DNA of 64,000 nucleotides from Candidatus Heimdallarchaeum aukensis (GCA_021513695.1 CP084166.1:960001-1024000); one strand, 5' to 3'; shown: positions 1,585 to 26,053, counted from the stretch's first letter. Notes: generated by a model from the sequence alone, not told the origin. Numbers and translations: made by a program.

Positions 1585-1606
1585 TAGATTGCCGATTAAA
1601 TTTTCT

Positions 1607-4246: not shown

Positions 4247-4493
4247 TCCAAAAGTAAGATTATTTTGAACCATTTTTTAGGAATAAGAAAAAATGGTTAT
4301 AGATGTAAAAAAAATCGGTAGATGTATGAAATATACTTTTCACAAGTTTTGTGATGGAAAATATAGGTATCACATCATTTACTTGTAGATCATTTGTCAT
4401 ATTTACTTGGTTCCTAAATTAATAGAGTAAACATTCGTTGTTTTTTTATCCAAAAATTATAATAATGCTTTCTTTATTTTATAAGTGAAAAAA

Positions 4494-5789: not shown

Positions 5790-6053
5790 ATGTCACAAGC
5801 AAAATTTCGTATTTATTGGAAGTCCTATTATCCTGAACGCATTACAGAGGAGTACATCAAAGCTGATAATCCTTGTCACGCTTTACTCTTAATTCGTGAC
5901 AAGTTCTTTGCTGAACATTCTGACGATATTTATTGTGCTTATGTATTTAGTCTACAAGTGAGAAAGGAAGGTTGTTGGGCTGATTGGACTTCTGAGAATG
6001 GTTTAGACATTACTACTCTTGCTGAAGAATTAGAGCTATTTACTTACTCTTGA
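5790..6053 (+). CDS. Small hypothetical protein (87 aa).
   Basis: ORF with balanced composition and no recognisable motif. Confidence 0.3.
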   Translation: MSQAKFRIYWKSYYPERITEEYIKADNPCHALLLIRDKFFAEHSDDIYCAYVFSLQVRKEGCWADWTSENGLDITTLAEELELFTYS

Positions 6054-6198
6054 TCTTGGTTCTTGTGTTGACAAGTAAAATATTCATAATTGTGCTTTCT
6101 ATGATGACTGAATAAAGTCCGATTGATTGAATTCTTCGTTGCTATTAAAGTTCTTTGATTTTGTTTAATTTTCTTTTCTTTCTTTTTTCTTTTATTCT

Positions 6199-7230
6199 TT
6201 ATTTTTCTTTCTTTGCTTCGTCTTTTGCTCTGTTTTTTGTTTTTATTTTATTTGTTCGTTCTGTCTCTATTTCTTTTTCTTCTATTTTTTTACTTTTATC
6301 TAGTATAATTATTATTACTCCTGCTATTATTCCTATTCCTCCCAGAATGTAAGATAGTGTTATTGGTTCTTTTAGTATTATTGCGCCTAGTATTATTGCG
6401 AACACTGGTTCATCTAGTAGTAGTAATGAGCTTTTTGATGACTCTTGATATTTTGCTGAGATCATCAACAGTCCATATGGTATTACGCTTCCTGCTAGTG
6501 CGAATCCTATTCCTATTAGTATTATTTTTGTTTTCATTATATTTTCTATTTCCATTTTTGCTAACTCTTCTGGTAGGGGTAGTATTGAGAACATTATTAG
6601 TAGAGGTAGAGCTATAATTATTGCCCATGATATCACCCAAGCTATTGATAGGGAATAGGGAACGTTTTTTCTTTTTTCTGCGCTTGCTCTTCCTACTAAA
6701 AGGTAGAAAGCGTAGAACAGTCCATTTAGTATTGCTAGAGTTGTTCCAACTATTGATGACATAAATGACTCCCATTTCCACACTTCTGTCAATGTGATTA
6801 ATCCTGCTGTTGCTACTATTATTGCTAGTATTTTGCTTTTTGTTATCCTTTCTTTTAGGAATATCCTTCCCAGTATTAGTGTTATGAACGGGTGTATCTG
6901 TATTAGCAGTGCTGCTTCTCCTGCTGGTGTTCCTACTGCTATTGAACTTAGGTAAACAACTATCATCATTACGAAGATTAAACTTTGTAACAGGTATGTT
7001 TTCTGATTTGTTAGCTTAATCGAGTTCTTTACTTGTTCTTTGTTTTTCTTTAATGTGTAGAAAACTATTATTCCTAACCCAAATATCGAACCGAAGAATA
7101 TTCTTAGCAATGATTGTTCTATACTTGAAACATTCAGATCTCTTAATATTGCTGAGATTACTGGTATTGAACCAAAAAATAGTCCTGCTGTGATTGATGC
7201 TAAATATGAAAAATTAGTTTTTTTATCCAT
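6199..7230 (-). CDS. DMT-superfamily (EamA-like) transporter, about 10 TM, with a Lys/Glu-rich C-terminal tail.
   Basis: Two repeated 4-5-TM halves of hydrophobic helices typical of EamA. The T/C-rich plus-strand stretch 6155-6350 is the antisense of its K/E tail. Confidence 0.65.
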   Translation of the reverse strand: MDKKTNFSYLASITAGLFFGSIPVISAILRDLNVSSIEQSLLRIFFGSIFGLGIIVFYTLKKNKEQVKNSIKLTNQKTYLLQSLIFVMMIVVYLSSIAVGTPAGEAALLIQIHPFITLILGRIFLKERITKSKILAIIVATAGLITLTEVWKWESFMSSIVGTTLAILNGLFYAFYLLVGRASAEKRKNVPYSLSIAWVISWAIIIALPLLIMFSILPLPEELAKMEIENIMKTKIILIGIGFALAGSVIPYGLLMISAKYQESSKSSLLLLDEPVFAIILGAIILKEPITLSYILGGIGIIAGVIIIILDKSKKIEEKEIETERTNKIKTKNRAKDEAKKEK

Positions 7231-7445
7231 TCTGGTTCGGGGTGTTTTTCTTTTTCACATTTATCAATCTTTACTCTTTCTCCATTCAATTTTCTATTAT
7301 TTATTCTTTCTTTTTTTCTCATTCTTTTCTGATTTTTACTATTTTTTCTATCAAACTTATCTATCAAACTTTTCTATCAAACTTTTCTATCATTTCTTAT
7401 GCAGCTTTTTCATAATTTTCTTAAATTGAAATTTTTCTTTCTCAT

Positions 7446-7904
7446 ATGGACTGCAGTTGGTGCAATTTAGATAGTTTTTCTGACTATTTCATTTACGACA
7501 GTGAATATTTCAGCGTTTATCTTTCTGAAGATCAAAGTCTTTTAGGTAGACTTATCTTGGTTCTTAATCGTCACGCTTCTTCTTTAAGTGATTTGACTCA
7601 TGAAGAAATACATGATTTTCTTTCTAATGTTAAAATCATTGAAAAAACTTTGACTAAAGCCTTTGGTACAACTATGTTTAATTGGAGTTGTTTGATGAAC
7701 AATTCTTTCAAAAAGCAACCTAGTTTTCCTCATGTCCATTGGCATTGTCGTCCTCGTTATGCTCACGATGTTTCTTTTACTGGTTTAGTTTTTTCTGACC
7801 CTGATTTTGCTCATCATTATAATAACAAAAGAAAACTTTTTGTCTCTCCTGAGGTTCGACAATCTATTATTTCTGCCATCCGAGACAATCTCTCTTCTGT
7901 CTAA
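7446..7904 (+). CDS. HIT-family (histidine triad) protein.
   Basis: HxHxHxx motif 'HVHWHCR' in the C-terminal half of a ~150-aa protein, as in HIT hydrolases. Confidence 0.6.
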   Translation: MDCSWCNLDSFSDYFIYDSEYFSVYLSEDQSLLGRLILVLNRHASSLSDLTHEEIHDFLSNVKIIEKTLTKAFGTTMFNWSCLMNNSFKKQPSFPHVHWHCRPRYAHDVSFTGLVFSDPDFAHHYNNKRKLFVSPEVRQSIISAIRDNLSSV

Positions 7905-10930: not shown

Positions 10931-11152
10931 CTATTCTTGTTTAACTGTAGATATCTTGAAAACTGTATATAATCCACAGTAACCTGTAATCCCAGTAATC
11001 AACGAGATTAATCCCACGATCAACAATATAATTAACAAGACCAAGTTTATTGGGGAGCTAAGTACAAAGTAGAAAACTATTGCCAAAACAGTTAGAATTG
11101 TTCCTAAAGCTACTCTTATTATTCTATCAGTTTTTCCTTCATTTACTTGCAT
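10931..11152 (-). CDS. Small two-TM membrane protein, DUF2892/YgaP-like (…GYCGLYTVFKIST).
   Basis: 73 aa with two hydrophobic helices and a C-terminal 'CxLY…ST' motif reminiscent of DUF2892. Confidence 0.45.
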   Translation of the reverse strand: MQVNEGKTDRIIRVALGTILTVLAIVFYFVLSSPINLVLLIILLIVGLISLITGITGYCGLYTVFKISTVKQE

Positions 11153-11307: not shown

Positions 11308-12135
11308 TATTTGTGGGGACTCTAATAGTAAGATATGAACATTCAAAAACTATCTACTCTTTTTAAGAGATGCAGAGTCCCCAAAAAGATAATAATAAAA
11401 GTTTTTTATGAATATATTGGTTCAAAGAATGGTTTGAGGACAGTAGCATGGAAGAATGGTTTAACACACCAAACATTATGGTATTGGGTAAAGAAGTTCA
11501 GGCTCTTTAGGAAAAGTTTACATAGAATTGTAGCAGAGAGAGGGGGAATACCAGAGATTATAGTAGTTGATGAGACGGAGATTAAGACCTCTCAAGGCTC
11601 AATGTATATGTGGTTCGCGTTAGATCCTTACAACAAGACTTTACTGGGTTTTAGTATTACTAAAGGACGGAGTAATCTTGAATGTTTACTAACTTTCCGT
11701 TATTGGCTCAAATGTTGGGGTTTTAAGCCCCGTATTGTCGTTACAGATGCAGGGGTATGGTATCCTGCCTTACTTCGTCTAGGTATCAAAATCTCCGTTA
11801 TCAAAGGTGGTTTACGCTCCTATATTGAACGTTTTAATGCTACTCTTAAGAGTTATCGTTGGTTTCATTCTATTCTCCACTGCACTTGTCCTATCCGTGC
11901 CGTCTATGGCTCTACTCATCTTTCTGGTTTTCTTACTCTCTTTATGCTCCATTATAATTTCGTTCGTCCTCATCAGAGCTTGGGACATCCTCCCCTTAGT
12001 TCCTTTTTACCTAGGAGGTGGTATAAAAACTAGACACTACCAAGAAAGCAGGTCCAAAAATTAATTTTTATTAATGTGGGGGTTTATGTCGGAATTATGA
12101 ACTATTTTCAGATTATAGACCCCCACAAAGTAAGA
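11308..12135 (+). mobile_element. IS6-family-like insertion sequence (~0.83 kb), a single DDE transposase gene flanked by imperfect terminal inverted repeats.
   Basis: Left end TTTGTGGGGACTCTAATAG (11310-11328) versus the reverse complement of the right end CTTTGTGGGGGTCTATAATC (12112-12131). An internal transposase ORF lies between them. Confidence 0.6.
11335..12033 (+). CDS. DDE transposase, IS6-like (VDETEIK … VVTDAGVWY … ERFNATLK motifs).
   Basis: DETxIK and ERFNxxLK strings are characteristic of IS6/IS26-type transposases. N-terminal HTH-like region. Confidence 0.65.
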   Translation: MNIQKLSTLFKRCRVPKKIIIKVFYEYIGSKNGLRTVAWKNGLTHQTLWYWVKKFRLFRKSLHRIVAERGGIPEIIVVDETEIKTSQGSMYMWFALDPYNKTLLGFSITKGRSNLECLLTFRYWLKCWGFKPRIVVTDAGVWYPALLRLGIKISVIKGGLRSYIERFNATLKSYRWFHSILHCTCPIRAVYGSTHLSGFLTLFMLHYNFVRPHQSLGHPPLSSFLPRRWYKN

Positions 12136-14110: not shown

Positions 14111-14124
14111 AAAGTTTAAATAAG
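14111..14124 (+). promoter_or_regulatory. Possible BRE/TATA element (AAAGTTTAAATAAG) about 45 bp upstream of the first tusA.
   Basis: TATA-like motif at a plausible distance from the start. Low specificity in AT-rich DNA. Confidence 0.25.
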
Positions 14125-14165
14125 GGTTGTGCATAATTGTGTCATAATCAAGAATAATTCATAAG

Positions 14166-14414
14166 ATGAAGAAAATGAGTAAGGAAAAAATCTCAATATC
14201 AATAGATGCAAGAGGGAGTCATTGCCCTGGACCAATGATGGAATTAATTAAAGCCATAAGACAGGCAGAAGTTGGAGAAATTGTTGAGCTTTTGAGTTCA
14301 GAGGAAGGATCTTTAAGTGATATTCCTGCATGGATTGAAAAAGCGAAACATGAACTTGTTGATATGATAAAAGAAGACGGTTATAATCGTTTTCTAGTCA
14401 GAAAAACGAGGTAA
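14166..14414 (+). CDS. tusA: TusA-like sulfurtransferase (SirA/YedF family).
   Basis: Conserved 'CPGP' (SHCPGPMM) active-site motif in an ~80-aa protein. Confidence 0.8.
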   Translation: MKKMSKEKISISIDARGSHCPGPMMELIKAIRQAEVGEIVELLSSEEGSLSDIPAWIEKAKHELVDMIKEDGYNRFLVRKTR

Positions 14415-14420
14415 AGATTA

Positions 14421-15563
14421 ATGAATAAAATTATAGTCATTGGTGGAGGATTTTCAGGTCTTACTATAGCTAACAAACTTGCAAAAAAAGCTAGAAAATA
14501 CAAGTTAGACATAACTCTGATCGAACCAAAAGACCATAATTTTTACGAGCCAGATCTGATTTTTTATGCATTTAACAATAAGAAACTGTCCAAGTTATAT
14601 AAACCGATGCATAAACTCGTGAGGAAAAGAGTTAATCACATTGGGATGCGGGCTAAAAAGGTCGAGACAGAGAAAAAGAAAGTAATATTAGAAGATGGGA
14701 CAGAGTTAGATTACGATTATCTAGTTCTTGCTACTGGAGTTAAATATATAGAAAAAGATTTCAAATATAGTGAACAAAAACACATTCATCACTTCTATAG
14801 CCCACCAGCAACAGAAAAGTTTAGACAAATGATAAAACGTTTTAAAGGAGGAACAATTGTTATCTCACCATCAACTGTGCCCTATAAATGTCCTCCAGCT
14901 CCTGTAGAATTCACTTTTATGTTAGATTCTTATTTAAAGAAAAGAAAGTTAAGAGACAAAGCAACGATAAAGTTTCTCTATCCTCTTTCTGTGCCTTTTA
15001 CAGTTAAAGAAGCTGCTGTTGTGGTAGCTGAGATGTATAAAAAAAGAGGAATAGAATTTGTTCCTTACTGTAATTACGAAAAAGTGGATATTGAGAACAA
15101 AAAATTCATCTCTTTTGAAGGAGAAGAGATAGAATACGATGAACTTGTACTGCTACCCATACATGAAGGTCAAGATATAATCAAAGAATCAGGTCTGGGA
15201 GATAAAGAAGGATATGTTCCTACAGACAAATTCACACTGCAAGTGAAAGGGCATCCAAATATATATGCTATCGGTGACTGTACAGATCTACCTACTTCTA
15301 AGGCTGGAGCAGTTTCTCATTATTCTGCACCTACTATCGTAAAAAATATTATTAACCAGATTAAAGGAAAAGAAGCTTCAGCAAAGTATAACGGAAAGAC
15401 AATTTGCTTCTTAGTAACTAGTTATCAAAAAGCAATGATGTTGGACTTTTCATATAACCATCCTTCAAGAAAGTATGGATTAATTCCAATGAGAATCTAT
15501 ATGCTCTTTAAAAGGCTATTTAGGTTCTTGTATTTTCATATATTAATTAAAGGAATAATATAG
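14421..15563 (+). CDS. FAD-dependent pyridine-nucleotide-disulfide oxidoreductase, sulfide:quinone oxidoreductase (SQR)-like.
   Basis: N-terminal Rossmann 'VIGGGFSGL'. 'YKCPPAPVEF' resembles the SQR/flavocytochrome cysteine motif. Second GD motif 'AIGDCTD'. Confidence 0.6.
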   Translation: MNKIIVIGGGFSGLTIANKLAKKARKYKLDITLIEPKDHNFYEPDLIFYAFNNKKLSKLYKPMHKLVRKRVNHIGMRAKKVETEKKKVILEDGTELDYDYLVLATGVKYIEKDFKYSEQKHIHHFYSPPATEKFRQMIKRFKGGTIVISPSTVPYKCPPAPVEFTFMLDSYLKKRKLRDKATIKFLYPLSVPFTVKEAAVVVAEMYKKRGIEFVPYCNYEKVDIENKKFISFEGEEIEYDELVLLPIHEGQDIIKESGLGDKEGYVPTDKFTLQVKGHPNIYAIGDCTDLPTSKAGAVSHYSAPTIVKNIINQIKGKEASAKYNGKTICFLVTSYQKAMMLDFSYNHPSRKYGLIPMRIYMLFKRLFRFLYFHILIKGII

Positions 15564-15572
15564 GTGAAAAAA

Positions 15573-15812
15573 ATGAGTGAAAATAAAATCACAAAAATAT
15601 TAGATGTAAAAGGGCTTAACTGTCCTTTACCAATTTTAAAAACAAAAAAAGCTATAAACGAAATTGAAGTTGGAGAAATAATAGAAGTTCTTGCCACTGA
15701 TCCAGGTTCAGTAAATGACTTTCAGGCATGGATTGAATCAACTGGACACGAACTAGTGGAATCTGCAGAAGAAAATGGCATTTTCCGCTATTTAATTAAA
15801 AAAACAAAATAA
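15573..15812 (+). CDS. tusA: TusA-like sulfurtransferase.
   Basis: 'LNCPLP' motif. SD-like GGTGA before ATG 15573 (the ORF track begins at GTG 15564). Confidence 0.8.
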   Translation: MSENKITKILDVKGLNCPLPILKTKKAINEIEVGEIIEVLATDPGSVNDFQAWIESTGHELVESAEENGIFRYLIKKTK

Positions 15813-15823
15813 AGGTGAAAAAA

Positions 15824-16297
15824 ATGAGTGAAAAAAAGAAAAAAATAGCTATAATTGCTTCTAAAGCCAATTTAGCAGATGCTTACCCTCCTTTTATCTT
15901 AGCGTCTACAGCAGCTGCAATGGATTATGAAGTATCAATATTCTTTACTTTCTTCGGTCTTAATTTGCTTAAGAAAAAAGGATTGAAGAAAGTTAAGATT
16001 ACTCCTGTAGGAGAAACTGCAATGCCCATGCCTATTCCACAAATAGTTGGAATGCTTCCTGGAATGACTGACATGGCAACAGCAATGATGAAAAATTGGA
16101 TGAAAAAGGCCAATGTGGTCTCTTTAGAAGAGTTAAGAGAATTATCTCTAGAAGCTGGAGTAAAAATGATTGCTTGTCAAATGACAATGGACGTAATGAA
16201 AGTTAAAAGAGAAGAATTAATTGATGAAATAGAGGTTGGAGGAGCTGCCACTTTCCTACAATTTGCATCAGAAGCCGACATTACTTTATACATTTAA
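15824..16297 (+). CDS. dsrE: DsrE/DsrF-family sulfur-relay protein.
   Basis: ~155 aa; 'IAIIASK…' DsrE-like fold signature and the 'IACQM' cysteine region; paralogous to 17564..18001. Confidence 0.65.
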   Translation: MSEKKKKIAIIASKANLADAYPPFILASTAAAMDYEVSIFFTFFGLNLLKKKGLKKVKITPVGETAMPMPIPQIVGMLPGMTDMATAMMKNWMKKANVVSLEELRELSLEAGVKMIACQMTMDVMKVKREELIDEIEVGGAATFLQFASEADITLYI

Positions 16298-16317
16298 CCT
16301 AGTTTGAAGTGATAAGG

Positions 16318-16695
16318 ATGTCTGAACAAAAAAAGAAGATGATTATCGTTGTTACTAGAGGAGAAGAAAGTAAAGAAACCTTAGAACCTCCTCTTCATAT
16401 TGCAACTATGGCTGCTCTGTTAGATGCAGAAGTAAAGATGATATATACTGCTAAAGCCGGACTACTATTAAAGAAAGGTGTACCAGAAAAACTAATTCCT
16501 CAAGAAGGAAGACAACCATTGATAGAAACAATTCGAGAAGCAAAAGAAGCAGGTGTTCAAATATACGTATGCACCCCAGTGCTAGAATGGAATAAACTTA
16601 ATAAAGATGATTTCATAGAAGAAATAGATGGAATTGTCGGAGCAATGACTTTAGTTAAAGAGTCACTTGAAGCTAACTCGACAATATCATTCTAA
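16318..16695 (+). CDS. DsrE/DsrF/DsrH-like small protein.
   Basis: ~125 aa; 'MIIVVTRG…YVCTPVLE' resembles DsrE-fold proteins. Confidence 0.5.
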   Translation: MSEQKKKMIIVVTRGEESKETLEPPLHIATMAALLDAEVKMIYTAKAGLLLKKGVPEKLIPQEGRQPLIETIREAKEAGVQIYVCTPVLEWNKLNKDDFIEEIDGIVGAMTLVKESLEANSTISF

Positions 16696-17120
16696 TGAAG
16701 TGGAAAATAATGTCTCTCTCACTTAACTCGCTGTTATCCAAAGATATTACCTGCTTTGATGTAATAAAGAATCTTTTTGCCTTAACTGATAATGAAATTG
16801 ATGTTTTAGCTTGTATTAACCACCTTCAACCAGTAAGCATAGCTAGAATTACAGAAATAATACCCAAAGATAGAGCCACTATATCAAGATCTATCTCTAG
16901 ATTAATGAGCATCGGAGTTGTACGGAAAGAAAAAGAAAATTTGGAGAAAGGAGGATACCAATTTCTGTATAGTAGCTTACCTATGAACGAATTAAGAAAA
17001 TTTGTAAAAAGTACCTTGAATGCAATAATTGAAAATATGAGTATCGCAATGGATAACTTAACAAAAGAAAAATGTGAAGAAAAATTCCAAGAAGTAAAAA
17101 GGAAATACAGCAAAAAATAG
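16695..17120 (+). CDS. Winged-helix (MarR/TrmB-like) transcriptional regulator.
   Basis: '…VSIARITEIIPKDRATISRSISRLMSIGVVRKE…' HTH plus wing. Confidence 0.5.
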   Translation: MKWKIMSLSLNSLLSKDITCFDVIKNLFALTDNEIDVLACINHLQPVSIARITEIIPKDRATISRSISRLMSIGVVRKEKENLEKGGYQFLYSSLPMNELRKFVKSTLNAIIENMSIAMDNLTKEKCEEKFQEVKRKYSKK

Positions 17121-17236
17121 ATTTCCTTTAACAATTTTCCTTTACATTTTTGTTGGTTAACGTTTTATAAAATAGTTATCCTTTTCATTTTATAGATAAA
17201 AGAATTCAAAAAAACTCTTATATTAAATCTTTTTTT

Positions 17237-17521
17237 TTGAGTAAACAAGAAAATAGTGTGATAATAATGACAGAAGTAGATCTAAATAAAATCAAAGCGC
17301 ATCATATTGTAGATGCTAGAGGTTCAGCATGTCCTGGACCATTATTAGAAGCAAAGAAAGGAATCTCAAAGGTTCCCAAAGGAGGAGTCCTTGAAGTTCA
17401 ATCTAGCGACCCTGGTACAAAAAATGATCTTCCTGCATGGTGTAGACGAGCAGGACATAAATTTTTGGGCGTTTTAGAAGCAGATGGATATGATAGAGTT
17501 TTCATTCAAAGACTAAAATAG
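17237..17521 (+). CDS. tusA: TusA-like sulfurtransferase.
   Basis: 'SACPGP' motif. Confidence 0.8.
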   Translation: MSKQENSVIIMTEVDLNKIKAHHIVDARGSACPGPLLEAKKGISKVPKGGVLEVQSSDPGTKNDLPAWCRRAGHKFLGVLEADGYDRVFIQRLK

Positions 17522-17526
17522 AATAT

Positions 17527-17545
17527 TCCTTTTTTTATTAAATTT
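17527..17545. terminator. T-run/A-run between convergent tusA and dsrE-like genes. Possible bidirectional terminator.
   Basis: CCTTTTTTTATTAAATTTTAAAAAAAA lies between two convergent stops. Confidence 0.25.
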
Positions 17546-17563
17546 TAAAAAAAATAAAAAGAA

Positions 17564-18001
17564 TTATATTAAGATATTTGCTTTTGCTTTTGTTGCTGCT
17601 TCAATATATGAAGCTATACCAGAAATTTCATCTACAAGATCAGAGAAATCATCTTCTGGGATATCAAAAAGTGGGATCATGTTAGAACAAGCAATTATTT
17701 TAACATTTCCTGACTCTTTTGCTTTCTTAAGAGCTGCTCTCCAATTACCTAGTCCTTTTTCTTTCATATTTTTGCGCATCAGTTCCTCATAAGGTTGTCC
17801 CTCTATACTTACTGGAAAATGATCTGGTGCGCCTTTTCTAAAAGCATGAGTTCCCCAAAAAGCTAGAAAAATATGTACATCATAATCCATTGCAATAGCT
17901 CCATTTGTTATTGTTGCAAGAGCTATGAGTTTTTCTTCTGTTCCAGAGGTTACCATTATACTAAATAATTCTCTTTCTTCTGACATAATAAACCACATCA
18001 C
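17564..18001 (-). CDS. dsrE: DsrE-family sulfur-relay protein.
   Basis: '…IIACSNM…' active-cysteine region; global similarity to 15824..16297. Confidence 0.65.
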   Translation of the reverse strand: MMWFIMSEERELFSIMVTSGTEEKLIALATITNGAIAMDYDVHIFLAFWGTHAFRKGAPDHFPVSIEGQPYEELMRKNMKEKGLGNWRAALKKAKESGNVKIIACSNMIPLFDIPEDDFSDLVDEISGIASYIEAATKAKANILI

Positions 18002-18210
18002 ACTGGTTGCGTGTCCAGATTCACAACTGGCATTTTAAAGATTTTGTAGTTTTTATAACAATAAAAATATTTTTTAATAGATTACGAATTGTTTTTTATA
18101 ATAAGCTCTTTTTATAATTGGCTTTTATCTTAACATATATGCTTTTTTAGTTTATTATCGCTCTATAATTTAAAAAAAATTATTATATCTTTTAAAAATT
18201 TTATTCCAAC

Positions 18211-18630
18211 ATGCAACAAAATGCAAAAAGACAAAAAATTAAAACCAAGAAGATTCTGATTATAACAACAAACGATATTTCTTATCTTGGTGCAGACACA
18301 GCAGGACAGCAACATCTAAAGTATTCAGAAGATGCTCTGATAATACGTGTTCCTGATCCTGTAATTTTTCCACCTGATTTTTATGTGAGAACATTAGAGA
18401 AAGGATTTGGGGGGATAATTGTAGCTTCTGCTGGTGATGAATCTCCTTTCTTGAATTCTCATGCCAGATTAGCGAAGAATATTGATGCTGCTTATAAAAT
18501 AATGAATGAAAAAGGAATTGACACAAAAAGGCTTGTTCTTACAGCCATTTGTAGCATTTGTGCAGGAAGTTTTATCAAAGCTGTTAACAACATGACTAAA
18601 TATTTAGACAGTGTTCATGAGCAAGAGTAA
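18211..18630 (+). CDS. MvhD/FlpD-like protein (hydrogenase delta subunit family). It has few cysteines.
   Basis: '…YLGADTAGQQHLKY…IIRVPD…' matches the MvhD core (…SYGGADTAG…IIRV…). Only a CxxC ('ICSICAG') remains. It sits immediately upstream of hdrA, as mvhD often does. Confidence 0.5.
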   Translation: MQQNAKRQKIKTKKILIITTNDISYLGADTAGQQHLKYSEDALIIRVPDPVIFPPDFYVRTLEKGFGGIIVASAGDESPFLNSHARLAKNIDAAYKIMNEKGIDTKRLVLTAICSICAGSFIKAVNNMTKYLDSVHEQE

Positions 18631-18643
18631 AGAGGAGAGATAA

Positions 18644-19927
18644 ATGAAAAATTATGATGCTTTAGTGATTGGAGCAGGGATCTCTGGTATTCAGACTGCG
18701 TTAGATCTAGCAGAACAGGGATTTAAAGTATTAATGATTGATAAAAAGAAAAGTACGGGAGGAGTAATGATTCAATTAAGTAAAGTTTTTCCGACTTTAG
18801 ATTGTGCATCTTGTATTACTACTCCCAAGATGAGTGAAGCGAGTAATCACCCAAATATAGAAACATGGACATTAAGTGAAGTTACAAGCATTAGTGAAAA
18901 TAACGGTTCTTATGTAGTAAATATACTCAAACACCCGCGATATGTAGATCTTGTAAAATGTACTGGTTGTGGAATATGTGAAGAAGTTTGTCCTGTAATA
19001 GTTGAAGATGAATATAATGAATACTATGGAATAAGGAAAGCTGTGGGTGTACCCTTTGGCACTGCAATTCCTCAAAAGGCAGTGTTAGAACCAGAATATT
19101 GCATTTTTTGTGGGGCTTGTGCGAAAAAATGTCCTACACAAGCAATTGAGTATGATCAAGAGCCAGAAAACATAGAAGTTAAAGTAAAAGCTGTAATTGT
19201 TGCTACAGGTTTTGAACAAACGCCAATAAAAGAAGAATATGGGGGAGGACGGTATAAGAATGTAATCAATGCCCTTACTATGGAAAGGCTTTTAGCTCCA
19301 ACAAGTCCTTTTGGTGGAGTTTTTCGCCCAGGAGATGGCAAGAATCCCTATTCTATTGCTTATATTCAATGCGCTGGTTCAAGAGATGCGAGTATTGGTG
19401 TTCCTTATTGTTCTAGAGTCTGTTGTATGTTCGCAGTGAAACAAGCCATGTTACTCTGCGGAGCAGCACCTTTAGCTGATATTACAATCTACTATATGGA
19501 TATCCGAGCTTTTGGTAAAAGGTATGAAGAGTTCTTCCAAGAAGCAAGAGAAATGGGTATAAATTTTGTTAAAGGTAAAGTCGCAAAAATAGAAGAACTG
19601 GAAAATGGTAATCTTAAGCTTAGAGTAGAGGTTCAAGAAGAGGAAGATTATGGAGTTAAGGAAATAGAACATGAACTTGTTGTTTTATCATCTGGAATGC
19701 TTCCCGCTTGGAAACCTGAAAAAGTGAGAGAAATATTACCGCTTGAAATCCACAAGTATGGTTTTATTAAAAGTCTACAACCACATGTAAATCCGTCTCA
19801 AACTAATTTAGATGGAATATTTGTTTCAGGAACAGCTATGGCCCCAATGGATATTGTAGATTCAATTTATAGCGGTAGTACAGCAGCAATGAAAGCTGCT
19901 TTGTACATTAAGAAAATTAAGGAGTAG
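18644..19927 (+). CDS. hdrA: HdrA-like FAD/FeS flavoprotein (heterodisulfide reductase subunit A family).
   Basis: 'DALVIGAGISG' FAD motif; two CxxCxxCxxxCP ferredoxin motifs; HdrA signature 'CAGSRDxxxxxxxxCSRVCC'. Confidence 0.8.
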   Translation: MKNYDALVIGAGISGIQTALDLAEQGFKVLMIDKKKSTGGVMIQLSKVFPTLDCASCITTPKMSEASNHPNIETWTLSEVTSISENNGSYVVNILKHPRYVDLVKCTGCGICEEVCPVIVEDEYNEYYGIRKAVGVPFGTAIPQKAVLEPEYCIFCGACAKKCPTQAIEYDQEPENIEVKVKAVIVATGFEQTPIKEEYGGGRYKNVINALTMERLLAPTSPFGGVFRPGDGKNPYSIAYIQCAGSRDASIGVPYCSRVCCMFAVKQAMLLCGAAPLADITIYYMDIRAFGKRYEEFFQEAREMGINFVKGKVAKIEELENGNLKLRVEVQEEEDYGVKEIEHELVVLSSGMLPAWKPEKVREILPLEIHKYGFIKSLQPHVNPSQTNLDGIFVSGTAMAPMDIVDSIYSGSTAAMKAALYIKKIKE

Positions 19928-19930
19928 ATC

Positions 19931-21958
19931 ATGATGTCAGAGAAAGTGAAAATCGGAGTTTATGTTTGTCATTGCGGCTTCAACATAGCTGAAATGGTAG
20001 ACGTAAAAAAAGTTGCTGAAGTGTTGGGAAAAGAAGAAGATGTGGAAGTTGCAAAAGATTTTATTTTTATGTGTTCTGACGCTGGGCAAAAGATGATTGA
20101 AAATGATATCAAAGAAAAGGGAATAAATAGGGTTATTGTTGCATCATGTTCTCCACTATTGCATGAAAAAACATTTCAAGGTGTTTTGGAGCGTGCAGGG
20201 CTAAATAAATTCCTCTTTGAACACATAAACATTAGAGAGCAAGTAAGTTGGGTAAGTAAAAACAAAGAGTCGGCTACAGAAAAGGCTATTCGTTTAATTA
20301 GAGGAGGAATAGCGAAAATACGGAAACAACAAGCTCTTGAACCAATTCTAAAGAAAGTGACTAAAAGTGTAGCAGTTATAGGAGGAGGAGTTGCAGGGCT
20401 AATTTCAGCAAAGAATTTGGGTGAAATGGGCGTTGATGTAACATTAATAGAAAAAAGTCCTTTTATTGGAGGAATGGTTGCAAGATGGGATAAATTGTTT
20501 CCAAACGATGAAAATGCTCAAGACATAGTTCGTAAACTAATAGAAGAAGTAAAAGATAATAAACATATACGGATTCTTACTAATTCTCAGATAGTGGGAG
20601 GAAAAGGGAGTTTAGGTGGATATTCTGTCACAATAGAGACAATTTCCAGAGGAATCAAAAGACTTCCAGAGAATATAGAAAACATTCTTTCTTCTTGCCC
20701 CATAGAAATAGACTCTCCTGAATCTTTTGGGTTAGAAAAAAGAAAAATTGTTTACAAACCAGAATACATATGCTATCCTGAAGAATATGCCATAGATTGG
20801 GATAATCTATCTGATGCAAAAGAACTAGAGAAATACAAAAAATGGGTTAAAGAGTCTAATCTTGAAGAAAAATTTGAATTAGAAAAAACAGTAACAAAAG
20901 AAGAAATTAATGTGGGAGCAATAATATTCGCTACTGGTTTTGAACCTTATGAACCTTATGAGGGAGAATATGGGTGGAAGAAGCATCCAAATGTTGTTAC
21001 TTTGCCACAATTAATAGAAATTCTAAAAAGAGTAGACAAAAATCAAACTCATTTCGTTTATAATGGGAAGGAAATTAAATCTGTAGCCTTTATTCATTGT
21101 GTTGGAAGTAGACAAATAGAAGGAGAAGATATCCCAGGACCTGATGGAAAGCTAAATACTTACTGCTCACGATATTGTTGTAATGCTACTATACATACAG
21201 CCAATGAATTGAAGAAACTTTACCCAAATTTACACGTTTATGAATTCTATCGTGATATTCGTACATATGGTCTTGACGATGAGGATATGTATACTAAAGC
21301 TTCCAAGAACGATGTTATATTTTTGAGATTTAACAATGAGTATAAACCAGAAGTTCAGATTTTAGAGAATGAAAAGTATAATTTTGTTATATCTGTAAAA
21401 GATCAATTAAGTTACTACGAAGAAGTTGACATACCAGCGGATATGGTAGTGTTAAGTGTTGGAATGGTTCCTCCACAGATAGATGATCTAGTATCTATTT
21501 TCACTGTCTCAAGAGGAAATGATGGTTTCCTACTTGAAGCTCATCCAAAACTAAAACCTGTTGAAACTTCTTCTGGTATTTTCCTTGCTGGAACAGCGCA
21601 AGGACCTATGAATGCAAGTGAAGCTGCTGCAGGAGCTACAGCAGCTGCAGTTAAAGTAGCAGCAGTGGTTTCTAAAGATGAGCTAGCTTTATCTCCATTT
21701 ATTGCTCGTGTTGACATTACAAAATGTGATGCTACTGGAAAATGTGTTGAAGTGTGTGAATATAATGCTATTGAAGTAACTGAGGTTGAAGTCGAAAAAG
21801 GAAAAGTGGAAAGAAAAGCGCAAGTTAATCCTACTTTATGTGTAGGAGGAGGAACATGTGTAAGCGCATGCCCTAACCAAGCTATTCGCATTGTTGGATG
21901 GACGAACGAGCAAATTGAAGATATGATTACTGCGATGATCAAGGAGGTTAAAGAATAA
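19931..21958 (+). CDS. hdrA: HdrA-like paralog (675 aa) with an N-terminal Cys-rich domain and C-terminal 2x[4Fe-4S] domain.
   Basis: 'VAVIGGGVAG' FAD motif; 'CVGSRQ…CSRYCC' HdrA signature; C-terminal 'CxxxGxCxxxCE' / 'CVGGGTCVSACP'. Confidence 0.75.
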   Translation: MMSEKVKIGVYVCHCGFNIAEMVDVKKVAEVLGKEEDVEVAKDFIFMCSDAGQKMIENDIKEKGINRVIVASCSPLLHEKTFQGVLERAGLNKFLFEHINIREQVSWVSKNKESATEKAIRLIRGGIAKIRKQQALEPILKKVTKSVAVIGGGVAGLISAKNLGEMGVDVTLIEKSPFIGGMVARWDKLFPNDENAQDIVRKLIEEVKDNKHIRILTNSQIVGGKGSLGGYSVTIETISRGIKRLPENIENILSSCPIEIDSPESFGLEKRKIVYKPEYICYPEEYAIDWDNLSDAKELEKYKKWVKESNLEEKFELEKTVTKEEINVGAIIFATGFEPYEPYEGEYGWKKHPNVVTLPQLIEILKRVDKNQTHFVYNGKEIKSVAFIHCVGSRQIEGEDIPGPDGKLNTYCSRYCCNATIHTANELKKLYPNLHVYEFYRDIRTYGLDDEDMYTKASKNDVIFLRFNNEYKPEVQILENEKYNFVISVKDQLSYYEEVDIPADMVVLSVGMVPPQIDDLVSIFTVSRGNDGFLLEAHPKLKPVETSSGIFLAGTAQGPMNASEAAAGATAAAVKVAAVVSKDELALSPFIARVDITKCDATGKCVEVCEYNAIEVTEVEVEKGKVERKAQVNPTLCVGGGTCVSACPNQAIRIVGWTNEQIEDMITAMIKEVKE

Positions 21959-22260
21959 TGTCTGAAGAAAAATATGATTATCGAACAGCCCTAAAAAAGC
22001 TGAAAGAAAAAATGGGTGGAACAAAAGCTGAATTGTTAGAGAGAAACAAGCAAAGAAACAAAGACAAGAAACTAGTGGTACAAGCAATTAAGGAGGGTCT
22101 TTCAACTGTTCCTAAGGTTGCAGAGAAAACTGGTCTTCCAACAGATAGGGTGTTTTCTATAATTAACCAACTAGTAAAATATGAAGGGCTTGTGATGAAA
22201 GACAAGCGAAGCGAATATCCTGTGTATGGTTTTGTAGAAGAAGGTGAAAAAGATGAGTAA
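21958..22260 (+). CDS. Small winged-helix-like protein (100 aa).
   Basis: '…GLSTVPKVAEKTGLPTDRVFSIINQLVKYEGLV…' HTH-like. Confidence 0.4.
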   Translation: MSEEKYDYRTALKKLKEKMGGTKAELLERNKQRNKDKKLVVQAIKEGLSTVPKVAEKTGLPTDRVFSIINQLVKYEGLVMKDKRSEYPVYGFVEEGEKDE

Positions 22261-23473
22261 TATTACAGTTGATCTAAATCTAATTAAAGAAATTAAAAAA
22301 TATGGAGCATTTGATGTCTCTGCTTGCTTTAACTGCGGAACATGTACAGCAATTTGTCCTTTGACTGATGAAGAAGGTAATTTTCCAAGACGTATTATTA
22401 GATATGCACAATTAGGTCAAAAAGAAAAACTTGAAGGTTCAAAAGAGTTATGGTTATGTTATTACTGTGGTGAGTGTTCTGACACTTGCCCTCGTGAAGC
22501 AGATCCAGGAGAGTTCATGATGTCAGCAAGGAGATATGCAATAGCTAGTTATGATCCTACAGGTATCTCCAAACTTCTTTACAAATCTAAACTTTTTTCT
22601 GGTTTTATGGTCGCTTTAGTAGCATTTTTGGTAGGATTGGCTTTTTACATTGTACGTGGAAATGAGGTACACGCAGATTCTTTGCTTTTTGAAATCGATC
22701 CTGCTTATATTCATTGGGGTGGTTATGCTCTTATGGCATTTTTAGCCATAGTTGTAGTTGCTGAACTGTGGAAAATGACGACTAGGATTTATAAGAAGGA
22801 AAAAGAAAAACTGGAGAAAGAAGGAGTAGAAATAGATGAGAAAATTTTTCCAAAGCTTGTTAGATGGGTGAAAAATGCGTTTAACATTGTATTTGTTGAA
22901 TTTATAGCTCAAAAAAGATACTTTAGAAGAGAAAAAGTTGAAGAAGAAAAATGGATTTTTTCTAAATGGTTTATTCACTTAAACATAGTTCTTGGTTTTT
23001 CTGGATTATTTGTGGCAACTGCACTAGATTTCTTTTTAGATATTATAAACGTAAAGAAAACTCCAATCGGTGCAGTACCTTTATTCTATCCCACAAGATT
23101 GTTAGGAACAATTGCTGGATTAATGTTACTATATGGAATAATTCTCGCTTTCTTCTTTAGACTTAAGAAACAAGACTCTTCAAGAGAACATTCACGATTT
23201 TCTGATTGGTTTCTTTTATCCTTGCTTTTTGGACTAGCTGTTTCAGGATTTATACTAGAAATTCTAGTCTACTTTCCTTTAGCTAATGAACAATTTGCTT
23301 TCTGGACTTTTATTGTGCATGTGGTTTTTGCTGTAGAGATGATTATTTTTGCACCATTTTCAAAACTTGCTCATCTTATGTATAGAACCTATGCTCTTTG
23401 GATTTACAAAAATTTACAAACAGCACCCAAAAAATATCCAGAAATAGCTGATCTAATAATATATGAAGATTAA
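22253..23473 (+). CDS. HdrC-like 2x[4Fe-4S] ferredoxin domain fused to a polytopic His-rich membrane domain (HdrE/NarI-like cytochrome b candidate).
   Basis: 'CFNCGTCTAICP' and 'CYYCGECSDTCP' followed by ~5 TM helices containing conserved-looking His. SD GGTGA before ATG 22253. Confidence 0.6.
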   Translation: MSNITVDLNLIKEIKKYGAFDVSACFNCGTCTAICPLTDEEGNFPRRIIRYAQLGQKEKLEGSKELWLCYYCGECSDTCPREADPGEFMMSARRYAIASYDPTGISKLLYKSKLFSGFMVALVAFLVGLAFYIVRGNEVHADSLLFEIDPAYIHWGGYALMAFLAIVVVAELWKMTTRIYKKEKEKLEKEGVEIDEKIFPKLVRWVKNAFNIVFVEFIAQKRYFRREKVEEEKWIFSKWFIHLNIVLGFSGLFVATALDFFLDIINVKKTPIGAVPLFYPTRLLGTIAGLMLLYGIILAFFFRLKKQDSSREHSRFSDWFLLSLLFGLAVSGFILEILVYFPLANEQFAFWTFIVHVVFAVEMIIFAPFSKLAHLMYRTYALWIYKNLQTAPKKYPEIADLIIYED

Positions 23474-23497: not shown

Positions 23498-24217
23498 TTA
23501 GAATTTTCCAAGATAATTTTCAATTTCTGGAACTTCTGACAATTTGGAAGAAGGACCAAAAAATAGTGTTTCTCCCCTATTTAGAAACAGAACATTGTCA
23601 GACCAATTTTCAATTAATAATCGTGAATGACTAGTAAAAATTAATGTCTTACCTTTTTCAATCACATCTTTTTCCAAAATTTCCTGCAAGGATTTTCTAG
23701 TTGGATAATCAATATTAGCAAAAGGTTCATCCAAAACAATTATTGAAGGATCCATAACTAAAACTCCTGCAATAGCTACTCTTTTCCTTTGCCCAAAAGA
23801 GAGTCTGAAAGGAGAATGATCCTTATATTCTCTTAAATCCACAATTTCCAAAGCTTTTTCTACTTTTTCTTCCACTTCTTCTTCAGTAAAACCTAAATTC
23901 CTAGGCCAAAAGGCTACATCTTCATATACGCTTGCAGAAAAAACTTGTGAATCAGGGTTTTGAAAAACGAATCCTACTCTTTTTCTAATTTCTTTAATTG
24001 TTTCTCTATTTAATTCAAGTTCTTGAACCTTTATTCTTCCTTTCTGGTGAAATTCAAGTCCAAGTAGTAATCTTAACAGAGTTGTTTTACCAGCTCCATT
24101 ATTTCCACAAATAGCAAATTTTTCTCCAATATTAATTGTAAAAGAGAGATTCTTTAACGCAAAAGATTTGTCTGGATACTCAAAGTGAACGTTTTCAAAA
24201 ACTATTTCATGATGCAT
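23498..24217 (-). CDS. cbiO: ECF-transporter ATPase (CbiO-like).
   Basis: Walker A 'GNNGAGKTTL'; ABC signature 'LSFGQRKR'; Walker B 'IIVLDEP'. Confidence 0.8.
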   Translation of the reverse strand: MHHEIVFENVHFEYPDKSFALKNLSFTINIGEKFAICGNNGAGKTTLLRLLLGLEFHQKGRIKVQELELNRETIKEIRKRVGFVFQNPDSQVFSASVYEDVAFWPRNLGFTEEEVEEKVEKALEIVDLREYKDHSPFRLSFGQRKRVAIAGVLVMDPSIIVLDEPFANIDYPTRKSLQEILEKDVIEKGKTLIFTSHSRLLIENWSDNVLFLNRGETLFFGPSSKLSEVPEIENYLGKF

Positions 24218-24984
24218 TTTTGAATAATACCTCCTGATATTAGACTAAAAAGAGTACTAATGAAAATGAGAAAAAGAAAATCTGCAATTGTTACTCTTTC
24301 TCGTTTTATAAGTAAATTATCTTCTAAACCTCGAAGAACCATTGCTTCGTAAACCTCTGTTCCATGTTTAATAGATTTTATAAGAATCCCACCCATCAAA
24401 GCCGCAGCAGCTTGAAACTTCCTTTTTCTTGATGCAGAATCTAATCCTCTCATCTTTTGAGCTGTTCTAATGTTTTCTCCTTCTTCAACAAGAAGAGGAG
24501 TATAACGCAACATAAGTAAAATGATAGTAACAATAATATTAGGAATAAAAAGACTGCGAAGACTCTGAATAAATTGTTGCATTGTCACACAAGTCGTATA
24601 CAGAGTAATTACAGAAACAGAGAAAATACCTCTAACCCAGATAAATAGAGCTCTATTTAATCCGTCGGAATAAATCTCAAAATTAATACCAATAAAGGAA
24701 TTTGAATAAATTACTTCTCCAAGTTTTAGAAATAAAGATGGAATACCTAAAAAGAAAATTAAAACTGAAGCTGGAATTATAAGCCTAATAGTTCTTACAA
24801 TTGAAGCTTTTATTGACAAAAAGAAAATTAAGGCTCCTAAGTAAATAATAAAAATGTTAAACAAATTGTTACTTAATAAAAATAAAACGATTACTAATAT
24901 GGTAAAGATAAGTAGTGCAACAGAAGAGAATATTCTCTGATTTTTCTTATCACTAAATGGAAATAAAAATTTTGTATTGTTCAT
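24202..24984 (-). CDS. cbiQ: ECF-transporter transmembrane T component (CbiQ-like).
   Basis: ~260 aa with 5-6 TM, overlapping the ATPase gene start (operon coupling). Confidence 0.65.
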   Translation of the reverse strand: MNNTKFLFPFSDKKNQRIFSSVALLIFTILVIVLFLLSNNLFNIFIIYLGALIFFLSIKASIVRTIRLIIPASVLIFFLGIPSLFLKLGEVIYSNSFIGINFEIYSDGLNRALFIWVRGIFSVSVITLYTTCVTMQQFIQSLRSLFIPNIIVTIILLMLRYTPLLVEEGENIRTAQKMRGLDSASRKRKFQAAAALMGGILIKSIKHGTEVYEAMVLRGLEDNLLIKRERVTIADFLFLIFISTLFSLISGGIIQKCIMK

Positions 24985-25051
24985 CGCTTATTCTCTTTTT
25001 GCTTATAAAGAAAAAAAAATAAAGAGTTATTAACTCTTACTTTTTTTAAGA

Positions 25052-26053
25052 TTATTCACCTTTTTCTTGGACAGCTTTTTGTCCTTTTTTGAATTTATAA
25101 AGCCTGAATCTGTAAAGTAAGTAGCTAAATCCAATTAGTACGAAGAAGAGTATGATCATTACAATTGCCATAGCCAAGATATCCCAACCTAACCCTTCAG
25201 GAAAGCCAAATATTCCGGATTCAAGAACTGTAACATCGATACCATTTTCAGAAAGAACTTCAAAAGTTTTCTCTAGTCCATCAGGATTACTGCTGGCTAC
25301 TATACCAAAAATAGACATTACGGCAAAAGAAGCAAAAGTAGCAATACCCGCCCAAATAGGTATTCTAAATTTGGGTTCTGCTTCTTCAGTTCTTTTGGTA
25401 AAGAATAAGGCACTTCTTGCATCTTCGAATAAACTTGGTTCTGCTCTGAAAACAAAGAAAACTATAGCAAAAGTGATTAAACCCTCAGCTACCCCAATTA
25501 TTGAATGTAAGATTAGCATCCATGAGAATATTAGACCTGCAGCTGCACTCTGAGCAAGAGTAAGCTCAATTGAAGCAAATAAAGCCATACATATTGTTGA
25601 AAAGAAAGCAGCGATTCCAGCAGCAATGGCAAACTTCTTTCTATCTTCCTTCCATTTATCAGGTAGGAAATAGTAAATTGCATAAGTAGTAAAAGCACCT
25701 ATTATAGCCATGTTAATAACATTGGCACCATAAGCTAAGAAACCTCCATCTCCAAACATTGCTTGAACAATGAGTATTGAAGAGATGATGAGTATACCAA
25801 CCCATGGGCCAACAAGCGTCGTAGCTAAAGCTGTTCCTATTAAATGTCCGCTTGAACCAAAAGGAACAGGAAAGTTAAACATCTGTGCGGCGAATAATCC
25901 TGCAGCTAAAACTCCTACTAGAGGAATTTGCTTCATCGTTAATCTTGATCTACTTTGCCATATGGCAACTAGTATCATGATTACGGCAATAACTAAATAG
26001 ACAATTGCTTGTCCTATCGGTAAGATTCCATCAGGCATGTGCATGAGTAACAC
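25052..26053 (-). CDS. cbiM: CbiM-like cobalt/nickel ECF substrate component with a C-terminal PDGLE-domain extension (CbiM-CbiN-like fusion).
   Basis: N-terminal 'MHMPDG' (CbiM/NikM hallmark); C-terminal '…SNPDGLEKT…' PDGLE motif after an extra TM. Confidence 0.75.
   Translation of the reverse strand: MLLMHMPDGILPIGQAIVYLVIAVIMILVAIWQSRSRLTMKQIPLVGVLAAGLFAAQMFNFPVPFGSSGHLIGTALATTLVGPWVGILIISSILIVQAMFGDGGFLAYGANVINMAIIGAFTTYAIYYFLPDKWKEDRKKFAIAAGIAAFFSTICMALFASIELTLAQSAAAGLIFSWMLILHSIIGVAEGLITFAIVFFVFRAEPSLFEDARSALFFTKRTEEAEPKFRIPIWAGIATFASFAVMSIFGIVASSNPDGLEKTFEVLSENGIDVTVLESGIFGFPEGLGWDILAMAIVMIILFFVLIGFSYLLYRFRLYKFKKGQKAVQEKGE

Follow-up and report, generated by a model that had tools for sequence, protein, structure and literature searches.

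A Qmo-like gene module with TusA and DsrE sulfur carriers beside a sulfide:quinone oxidoreductase cassette in Candidatus Heimdallarchaeum aukensis

The window analysed here is a stretch of 64,000 nucleotides (64 kb) from Candidatus Heimdallarchaeum aukensis (GCA_021513695.1, CP084166.1:960001-1024000), and its positions 14166-23473 carry two separable gene modules lying side by side. Module 1 (14166-17120) is a cassette around a flavoprotein resembling sulfide:quinone oxidoreductase (SQR). Module 2 (17267-23473) is Qmo-like, as it encodes two HdrA paralogues and an HdrC/cytochrome b fusion, together with an MvhD-like subunit and its own TusA and DsrE sulfur carriers. The boundary between them follows from the separate occurrence of both modules in other archaeal genomes; the initial annotation had treated all of these genes as one cluster, and this has to be given up, since the two modules are found apart in other Heimdallarchaeia. 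The reading that we favour, at about an even chance, is that module 2 specifies a Qmo-type complex linking the quinone pool, a low-potential partner and the sulfane sulfur bound to TusA and DsrE, encoded beside the SQR cassette.

All the open reading frames (ORFs) described for 14166-23473 are present, several of them with a probable true start a few codons 3' of the first possible start codon (Table 1). An identical QmoC-like protein is encoded on three independent metagenome contigs, each with the same cluster. Domains were called with Pfam and NCBIfam hidden Markov models (HMMs; the cut-off for TusA, PF01206, is 28.6 bits), and the domain scan of the window covered the ORFs of 90 amino acids (aa) or longer other than a 157-aa ORF at 63345-63818. 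HMM matches bore out the three TusA and three DsrE-like proteins in all six ORFs, and each of the SQR-like, MvhD-like, HdrA (two genes) and HdrC-cytochrome b calls is backed in the same way. The eleven genes that had been counted on one strand are in fact twelve ORFs on the plus strand; the winged-helix genes at 16695-17120 and 21958-22260 had been left unlisted. Moreover, the dsrE gene on the minus strand, which had been described as convergent, is convergent with tusA-3 and divergent from mvhD.

The core of module 2 consists of two flavoproteins that do belong with HdrA, each scoring about 400 bits against solved HdrA structures, and of a membrane subunit. The shorter, QmoA-like paralogue holds FAD, the CxxC of an FPTxDCxxC motif, an inserted 2x[4Fe-4S] ferredoxin domain and a CxGSRD..YCSxxCC cluster, and, like QmoA, is devoid of the N-terminal and C-terminal HdrA domains; its cysteines are kept in 63-68 of 68 relatives. 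The full-length, QmoB-like paralogue retains FAD and the special cluster, as well as the four-cysteine domain at the N terminus and the ferredoxin domain at the C terminus; the CxxC is gone throughout the family, and so are both cysteine motifs of the inserted ferredoxin domain. About 70 relatives of each protein show this complementary cysteine pattern, which suggests that the two paralogues form an HdrA-like heterodimer. In the C-terminal ferredoxin domain of the QmoB-like protein from the window (residues 599-647), both motifs read Cx5Cx3C, with T602 where 39 of 71 relatives have a cysteine and G640 where 68 of 71 have one; these motifs may hold [3Fe-4S] clusters or rely on alternative ligands.

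The QmoC-like subunit has eight cysteines that are invariant in 30 homologues. Its membrane domain, a weak match to NarI, is NarI-like and sustains the earlier suggestion of a membrane-linked system. A check for haem-binding histidines proposed for this gene found four conserved histidines in the membrane helices, of which His242, His356 and His374 are invariant among the same homologues and His154 is present in at least 90% of them. Since QmoABC is defined by the combination of two HdrA paralogues with an HdrC/cytochrome b fusion (PMC3333476), the scaffold belongs to a known, Qmo-like kind and is not "unconventional" as it had been called; what is unusual is the partner set. The QmoA-like protein of 39 out of 72 bacterial relatives contains a GltD-type NAD(P)H module (Fer4_20 plus Pyr_redox_2) seated inside the inserted ferredoxin domain. 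This module suggests that NAD(P)H is the third redox partner in these relatives. For the short QmoA-like form found in the window, ferredoxin is the likely equivalent.

The association of this core with sulfur carriers is widespread. Database relatives of the QmoC-like protein number more than 2,400, mostly about 45% identical to it and about 390 aa in length, and a scan of species representatives (one genome per species) gave at least 446 Qmo-like loci. Gene neighbourhoods were drawn from the best 80 of these, which lie in bacteria (Chloroflexota, Actinomycetota, Acidobacteriota, Bacteroidota, Gemmatimonadota, Bacillota, Planctomycetota and Spirochaetia) and in two archaeal groups (one further Heimdallarchaeota genome and one Nitrososphaeria genome). 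In a crude neighbour-joining tree, the five archaeal QmoC-like sequences group together. Flanks were searched with the window proteins and counted over the 57 species-representative loci with enough flank. An MvhD-like gene and two HdrA-like genes are present in all 57; TusA is found in 55, DsrE in 55 and both together in 54, which supports the sulfur link drawn in the initial annotation. A protein X gene between the qmoB-like and qmoC-like genes is found in 52 of the 57 loci, an ArsR-type gene in 21 and a rhodanese in 5, and the usual order is ArsR-tusA-mvhD-(dsrE)-qmoA-qmoB-X-qmoC-(dsrE). Two loci from Thermoleophilia (L057 and L065) have two complete Qmo-like modules tail to tail, with DsrE genes between them.

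The carriers themselves are conserved with the module. Of the 72 TusA genes that adjoin Qmo-like modules, 70 have TusA-3 as their best match in the window, and a bacterial module TusA shares 60% identity with it; judged by these comparisons, TusA-3 is the orthologue of the module-2 TusA and belongs to module 2. The arrangement of a minus-strand dsrE with tusA and mvhD recurs in related loci L002 and L010. When the window proteins were aligned with those of the relatives' loci, the carrier cysteine was kept in 71 of 74 TusA and in 83 of 85 DsrE sequences.

Clustering of the other neighbour ORFs, with AprAB, Sat, Dsr, HdrB, persulfide dioxygenase and YeeE being sought, gave no family in more than 8 of the 80 loci, and hence no Apr, Sat, Dsr or HdrB linkage. 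AprAB, Sat and Dsr domains were likewise absent from the scanned ORFs of the window. These results bear on the idea of a canonical QmoABC that serves an AprAB encoded elsewhere, in sulfate reduction or sulfite oxidation. Such a role would fit the subunit architecture (PMC3333476), the annotation of one QmoC-like homologue as QmoC by the Joint Genome Institute (JGI), and the "type II" Qmo reported in some sulfate reducers by Neukirchen et al. (PMC10504309). Nonetheless, we rejected it as highly improbable, as neither aprBA, sat nor dsr is found among the scanned ORFs of the window, no such conserved neighbour exists in the 80 related loci, and the MvhD domain stands unfused, without its classical cysteines. 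Moreover, most of the carriers belong to the Actinomycetota, Chloroflexota, Acidobacteriaceae and Bacteroidota, which to our knowledge are not sulfate reducers.

A CCG/HdrB domain (PF02754) was not found among the scanned ORFs of the window, in agreement with the initial annotation, and neither was the lipoate-binding protein LbpA (GcvH-like); an LbpA-type recurrent neighbour is also missing from the 80 related loci. The likeness to the Hdr-like complexes of sulfur oxidisers (sHdr), which had been drawn from the persulfide carriers, fails on these two absences. sHdr complexes are soluble, whereas the complex here would have a cytochrome b anchor. A pathway of the sHdr kind, oxidising the sulfane sulfur delivered by TusA and DsrE to sulfite, would explain why HdrA-like proteins are present here and would be in keeping with the TusA and DsrE-family carriers that always accompany sHdr systems (PMC11094781), yet without HdrB/CCG, separate HdrC1/C2 and LbpA among the scanned ORFs it is the least credible of the readings weighed and was ruled out. 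Two further candidates were rejected as well, a hydrogenase-linked Hdr, as hydrogenase genes are not in the cluster, and a selenium-specific role, for which there were only sub-threshold matches to YedF and to selenoprotein SQR.

Two small proteins set module 2 apart. The MvhD-like call stands at the level of the family (PF02662), whereas none of the classical MvhD cysteines is left: in comparison with solved MvhD, those of CCNWC, MCSG and GCHHGDC are all replaced. The only cysteines of the window protein form C114-x-x-C117, at a place where classical MvhD has no cysteine, and this CxxC is found in 68 of 70 members of the MvhD-like family. The pair may act as a redox-active disulfide, bind a bridging cluster or serve in another way. 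Most bacterial members have three further cysteines, and about four cysteine-pattern subtypes can be told apart among the relatives. Protein X, whose gene overlaps both of its neighbours, gave a profile with a weak match to ArsR-type winged-helix structures. The Foldseek matches of its AlphaFold2 (AF2) model (single sequence, pLDDT 70) are all winged-helix and none is significant, and a homologue search with the protein matched only an identical hypothetical protein of Ca. Heimdallarchaeum aukensis. Protein X could be a subunit or an embedded regulator; the winged-helix protein DsrD, which activates DsrAB, is a precedent for a role other than on DNA.

How these parts might work together is suggested by the HdrABC-MvhAGD structures, where MvhD is the donor entry for the mid-potential partner, HdrC is the high-potential exit and the inserted ferredoxin domain is the low-potential exit. 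By analogy, we infer that the MvhD-like subunit would be the mid-potential port, the HdrC-like domain the quinone branch and the inserted ferredoxin domain the low-potential branch of a membrane complex. The heterodimer of QmoA-like and QmoB-like proteins, carrying FAD and [4Fe-4S] clusters, would be connected with two haems b, and through these with the quinone pool, by the HdrC-like domain that the QmoC-like subunit contains. Its cytoplasmic partner would be sulfur on the dedicated TusA and DsrE, instead of adenosine-5'-phosphosulfate (APS) reductase, and these two carriers would probably dock at the cysteine-poor MvhD-like subunit with its conserved CxxC. The third, low-potential partner would probably be ferredoxin here, and NAD(P)H in more than half of the bacterial relatives. 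Electron bifurcation by module 2 is a possibility. The FAD and cluster motifs are there, divided between the two paralogues.

In the reductive, confurcating direction, quinol and reduced ferredoxin or NAD(P)H would together reduce the TusA/DsrE persulfide to H2S, which would mirror the confurcation with APS reductase proposed for Qmo (PMC3333476). On an approximate calculation with textbook midpoint potentials, either direction is possible, and the reductive one is only slightly favoured. Reversed, the same complex would be an electron-bifurcating sulfide/thiol oxidase, at which H2S and a TusA/DsrE thiol would give a protein persulfide at the MvhD-like entry while the HdrA-type FAD would split the electron pair between quinone, through QmoC, and ferredoxin or NAD(P)+. 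We regard this alternative as possible rather than probable. It fits with tusA adjoining mvhD, the donor entry, in almost all loci, with an HdrC-like domain that leads to quinone and with a ferredoxin domain that harbours the NAD(P)H module; in addition, module 2 adjoins here an SQR that would also feed sulfide electrons to quinone, and many carriers (for example Acidobacteriaceae and Nocardioidaceae) are aerobic or facultative organisms, with dehydrogenases feeding the quinone pool. However, there is no evident site for persulfide formation, and the window encodes no persulfide dioxygenase, sHdr or Dsr that could use the accumulating sulfane sulfur. Furthermore, most carriers are not known as sulfur lithotrophs, and the thermodynamics with ferredoxin are near zero. 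Whether module 2 stands for an enzyme family that has gone unrecognised, namely a bifurcating or confurcating TusA-persulfide:quinone/ferredoxin (or NAD(P)) oxidoreductase, is a wider claim, which we put forward as doubtful for now.

A different proposal would be a quinone-linked ferredoxin/NAD(P)H oxidoreductase without any sulfur substrate, TusA and DsrE then serving only in regulation, in sensing or in supplying sulfur when cofactors are assembled; regulation would also be the task of protein X and the ArsR-type proteins. It would account for the missing sulfur-catalytic site, for the NAD(P)H module that half of the family has of its own, for an archaeal locus (L004) without adjacent TusA or DsrE and for the DNA-binding type of fold of protein X. 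Nevertheless, we consider it unlikely: the joint presence of TusA and DsrE in nearly all of the counted loci extends over many phyla and both domains, the module TusA forms a distinct and highly conserved orthologue group, and a linkage this tight and ancient is atypical of mere accessory or regulatory genes.

Some observations do weigh against a Qmo-type complex that exchanges electrons with carrier-bound sulfur. No sulfur-catalytic site is recognisable in it, there being no HdrB CCG clusters, molybdopterin or sirohaem. The archaeal locus L004 encodes MvhD-QmoA-QmoB-X-QmoC with no SQR cassette, TusA or DsrE adjacent, and module 1 occurs without adjoining Qmo-like genes in three relatives (L092, L093 and L095); with module 1 standing alone in these, the modules may act apart and need not cooperate. 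Were quinol the only reductant, reducing SQR's own sulfane sulfur would appear to be a futile step, which the participation of a low-potential donor or of a proton-motive quinone loop would avoid. The part given to the CxxC in this model is speculative, and the five cysteines of most bacterial MvhD-like subunits could simply bind a cluster. Finally, protein X may be a DNA-binding regulator and not a subunit.

Module 1 has the order tusA-sqr-tusA-dsrE2-dsrE-regulator. The three TusA proteins of the window, including that of module 2, score 73-91 bits and have the Cys-Pro-x-Pro motifs CPGP, CPLP and CPGP; TusA-2 is called at 79 aa on the identical contigs too. The SQR-like protein reaches 341 bits with the NCBIfam type III SQR model (cut-off 525), a model of the selenoprotein subtype and the only SQR model there to match, and aligns over its full length with human SQOR (163 bits). 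The active-site cysteines equivalent to Cys201 and Cys379 of human SQOR are kept, within the aligned motifs KCPPAP/KCAGAP and GDCTDLPTSK/GDCTNLPTSK. The DsrE2-like carrier has a single conserved cysteine, in an IAC motif, and scores 205.4 bits with the NCBIfam DsrE2 model, which is narrowly short of the cut-off (210) and leaves the DsrE subtype uncertain. Human SQOR passes its sulfane sulfur to an acceptor, which would make the flanking TusA and DsrE the obvious protein acceptors. The SQR-type flavoprotein would oxidise H2S and send the electrons to the quinone pool, and the sulfane sulfur left would be taken up by the TusA and DsrE-family carriers as cysteine persulfides, the TrmB/MarR-like protein putatively controlling the module.

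SQR homologues were found throughout the Heimdallarchaeia, where type III SQR was reported to be widespread in a study that does not mention TusA, DsrE, Hdr or Qmo (PMC11193907). The six-gene order tusA-sqr-tusA-dsrE(157 aa)-dsrE(122 aa)-TrmB/MarR is the same in L092, L093 and L095, where it follows the same M14 peptidase gene and is likewise closed by the TrmB/MarR-like gene; TusA-1 lies upstream of sqr in these three and in L094. The arrangement of two modules appears to be shared by a second Heimdallarchaeaceae population (L094 and L002/L001). A gene for a TauE-family exporter lies a few genes upstream of module 1 in L092, L094 and L095 and is absent from that place in the window. In L093 (GCA_013166775.1, an Asgard genome), a conventional HdrC-HdrB(CCG)-HdrA set is encoded about 1.1 kb upstream of the SQR cassette on the opposite strand; next come, within positions 1-7603 of the minus strand, genes for NuoF-like and Fe-S proteins, for MvhD and for the small subunit of a hydrogenase.

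Table 1. Genes and candidate regulatory elements of modules 1 and 2, in window coordinates
Feature	Position	Strand	Basis and remarks
Putative promoter/operator of module 1: TATA-like TTTAAATA then GGTTGTGCAT..TTGTGTCATAATC	14113-14148	+	Conservation
TusA-1, 82 aa	14166-14414	+	PF01206, 74 bits; CPGP cysteine present
SQR-like flavoprotein, type III-like, 380 aa	14421-15563	+	Pyr_redox_2, FCSD_central
TusA-2, 79 aa from ATG	15573-15812	+	PF01206, 91 bits; ORF opens 15564
DsrE2-like carrier, 157 aa	15824-16297	+	PF13686, 179 bits; ORF opens 15815
DsrE-like protein, 125 aa	16318-16695	+	PF02635, PF13686; conserved Cys aligned; ORF opens 16309
TrmB/MarR-like winged-helix regulator, 136 aa	16710-17120	+	PF01978, PF01047, PF25212; ORF opens 16695
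TusA-3, 84 aa	17267-17521	+	PF01206, 73 bits; ORF opens 17237
DsrE-family protein, 140-145 aa	17564-17986 (ORF to 18001)	-	PF13686, 67 bits; conserved Cys aligned
Imperfect inverted pair GGTTGCG-N10-CACAACT	18005-18028		Just upstream of dsrE(-); resembles the module-1 half-site
MvhD-like subunit, 139 aa	18211-18630	+	PF02662 (MvhD/FlpD), 57 bits
QmoA-like protein, short HdrA paralogue, 427 aa	18644-19927	+	400 bits to HdrA 5odc_A residues 146-567
QmoB-like protein, full-length HdrA paralogue, 675 aa	19931-21958	+	404 bits to HdrA 8rvu_a residues 10-655
Protein X, cysteine-free winged-helix, 100 aa	21958-22260	+	Overlaps both neighbouring genes
QmoC-like subunit, 406 aa	22253-23473	+	HdrC-like 2x[4Fe-4S] domain fused to six-helix NarI/HdrE-like di-haem cytochrome b domain

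Upstream of tusA-1, a TATA-like sequence followed by GGTTGTGCAT...TGTGTCATAATC is found in five genomes (the window and L092, L093, L094 and L095), and the version in L093 is a perfect GGTTGTG-N19-CACAACC. The element is conserved between species, and an operator role may be inferred for it from this conservation. The half-site GGTTGYG occurs 9 times in the 64 kb against 4.1 expected, which makes the pair at 18005-18028 weak evidence. An operator common to both modules was considered and dropped, since the similarity ahead of dsrE(-) extends over too few bases to be convincing; the inverted pairs may nonetheless indicate co-regulation of modules 1 and 2.

Directly 3' of the cluster lies a CbiO/CbiQ/CbiM operon for an ECF-type transporter (23498-26053, minus strand), the position of which is kept in relatives with or without module 2 (L001, L005 and L093). 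Given this constant position, module 2 looks like an insertion or a deletion between module 1 and cbiO. On the other side, an rve-type integrase gene (11335-12033, plus strand) is situated two genes upstream of module 1, just past the M14 peptidase gene, and a gene of the OrfB_IS605/TnpB type is found at 37321-38208 (plus strand). A YgaP-like (DUF2892) small membrane protein is encoded at 10931-11152 (minus strand), about 3 kb upstream of the cluster; proteins with YgaP-like domains, one of them fused to thioredoxin, also occur near the bacterial module in L006.

Further along the window, two genes for Gtr1/RagA-plus-Arf-type GTPases (59990-61462, plus strand, and 61463-62686, minus strand) and a Ras-like gene (54594-55313, plus strand) were identified. 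Gtr1/RagA, Arf and Ras-like GTPases are eukaryote-signature proteins of the kind expected in Asgard archaea, and two related loci, L001 and L095, also have an Arf/Ras/Roc gene close to the cluster. Between the Ras-like and RagA-like genes, a 1,535-aa ORF (55335-59942, plus strand) had no Pfam match at E<=1e-4. In addition, a caspase-domain (Peptidase_C14) protein (34825-35625, minus strand) adjoins a double winged-helix regulator (33086-34231).

Qmo complexes are central to the sulfur cycle, and their mechanism, notably the role of QmoB and its MvhD domain, is an open problem; no function has been assigned to the Qmo relatives of organisms that lack APS reductase (PMC10504309). The constant linkage with TusA and DsrE points to a testable substrate, a protein persulfide, for an HdrA/cytochrome b machine without HdrB. 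A full-text literature search returned no description of a Qmo-like operon linked to TusA and DsrE, which may still be published elsewhere. Among the loci from the species scan are those of Actinomycetota, Chloroflexota and Acidobacteriota living in soil and wastewater, which as far as we know are not sulfur specialists; with such a wide spread among non-specialists, the system could be a common and overlooked route of sulfane-sulfur homeostasis or energy conservation. If the more doubtful claim of an unrecognised enzyme family holds, its members would couple the redox chemistry of protein-bound sulfane sulfur to the quinone pool, possibly with a proton-motive force through a quinone loop with SQR, and would provide Heimdall archaea and hundreds of bacteria that are not known as sulfur specialists with an oxygen-independent use or disposal of reactive sulfur. 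In the Heimdallarchaeia, the position of module 2 beside the conserved SQR cassette of the lineage bears on sulfide handling in the archaeal relatives of eukaryotes.

Among known systems, module 2 is closest in its parts to QmoABC of sulfate reducers and green sulfur bacteria. Both have a short and a long HdrA-derived flavoprotein, a fusion of an HdrC-like 2x[4Fe-4S] domain to an HdrE/NarI-like di-haem cytochrome b and an MvhD-type element, and both would presumably link the quinone pool to cytoplasmic sulfur redox chemistry, possibly by confurcation (PMC3333476). In QmoABC, however, QmoB ends in a fused MvhD-like domain (PMC3333476), whereas the QmoB-like protein of the window ends in the HdrA ferredoxin domain and the MvhD-like subunit is a separate upstream gene, its product being devoid of the classical cysteines and bearing the conserved CxxC at another place. 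An aprBA/sat linkage is lacking in the window and the 80 loci, near-universal dedicated TusA and DsrE being found instead; an additional winged-helix protein is encoded between the qmoB-like and qmoC-like genes, and many relatives include an NAD(P)H module. "Type II" Qmo stands closer to HdrA, occurs with or without Dsr/Apr and has no known function (PMC10504309). Module 2 matches it by description only, on the basis of scores of about 400 bits to methanogen HdrA and of the lack of Apr linkage. In the main text of that study, TusA comes up incidentally, in the legend of a figure and the title of one reference, and is not tied to Qmo, and part of its supplements carries no mention of TusA.

With HdrABC-MvhAGD of methanogens, module 2 shares the HdrA fold and cluster motifs, the HdrC-like domain and an MvhD-like subunit, so that the methanogen complex can serve as a model for its wiring and for bifurcation at a flavin. 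It differs by the absence of HdrB, and with it of a heterodisulfide site, and of a hydrogenase, by the division of HdrA into two complementary paralogues and by the fusion of HdrC to cytochrome b, quinone replacing the heterodisulfide. Mycobacterial EtfD and E. coli NarI are structural neighbours of the QmoC-like model, yet their cytoplasmic partners are ETF and nitrate reductase, respectively, and EtfD has CCG domains where the QmoC-like protein has none. The sHdr-LbpA system with its TusA/DsrE3/rhodanese relay (PMC11094781) is similar in having persulfide carriers encoded beside Hdr-related redox proteins; it differs in its HdrB1/B2, HdrC1/C2 and LbpA, which are missing here, in the membrane anchor predicted for module 2 and in that the organisms carrying module 2 are mostly not known sulfur oxidisers.

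For module 1, the cst operon of Staphylococcus aureus (tauE-cstR-cstA-cstB-sqr), in which CstA fuses TusA and DsrE/TusD-type domains, offers the nearest parallel. The two have in common an SQR, carrier domains of the TusA and DsrE type and a dedicated regulator, and the TauE gene near module 1 in three related Heimdallarchaeia extends the likeness. Module 1 differs from cst in that it is without the persulfide dioxygenase CstB, encodes its carriers as separate small proteins and has a regulator of the TrmB/MarR-like family.

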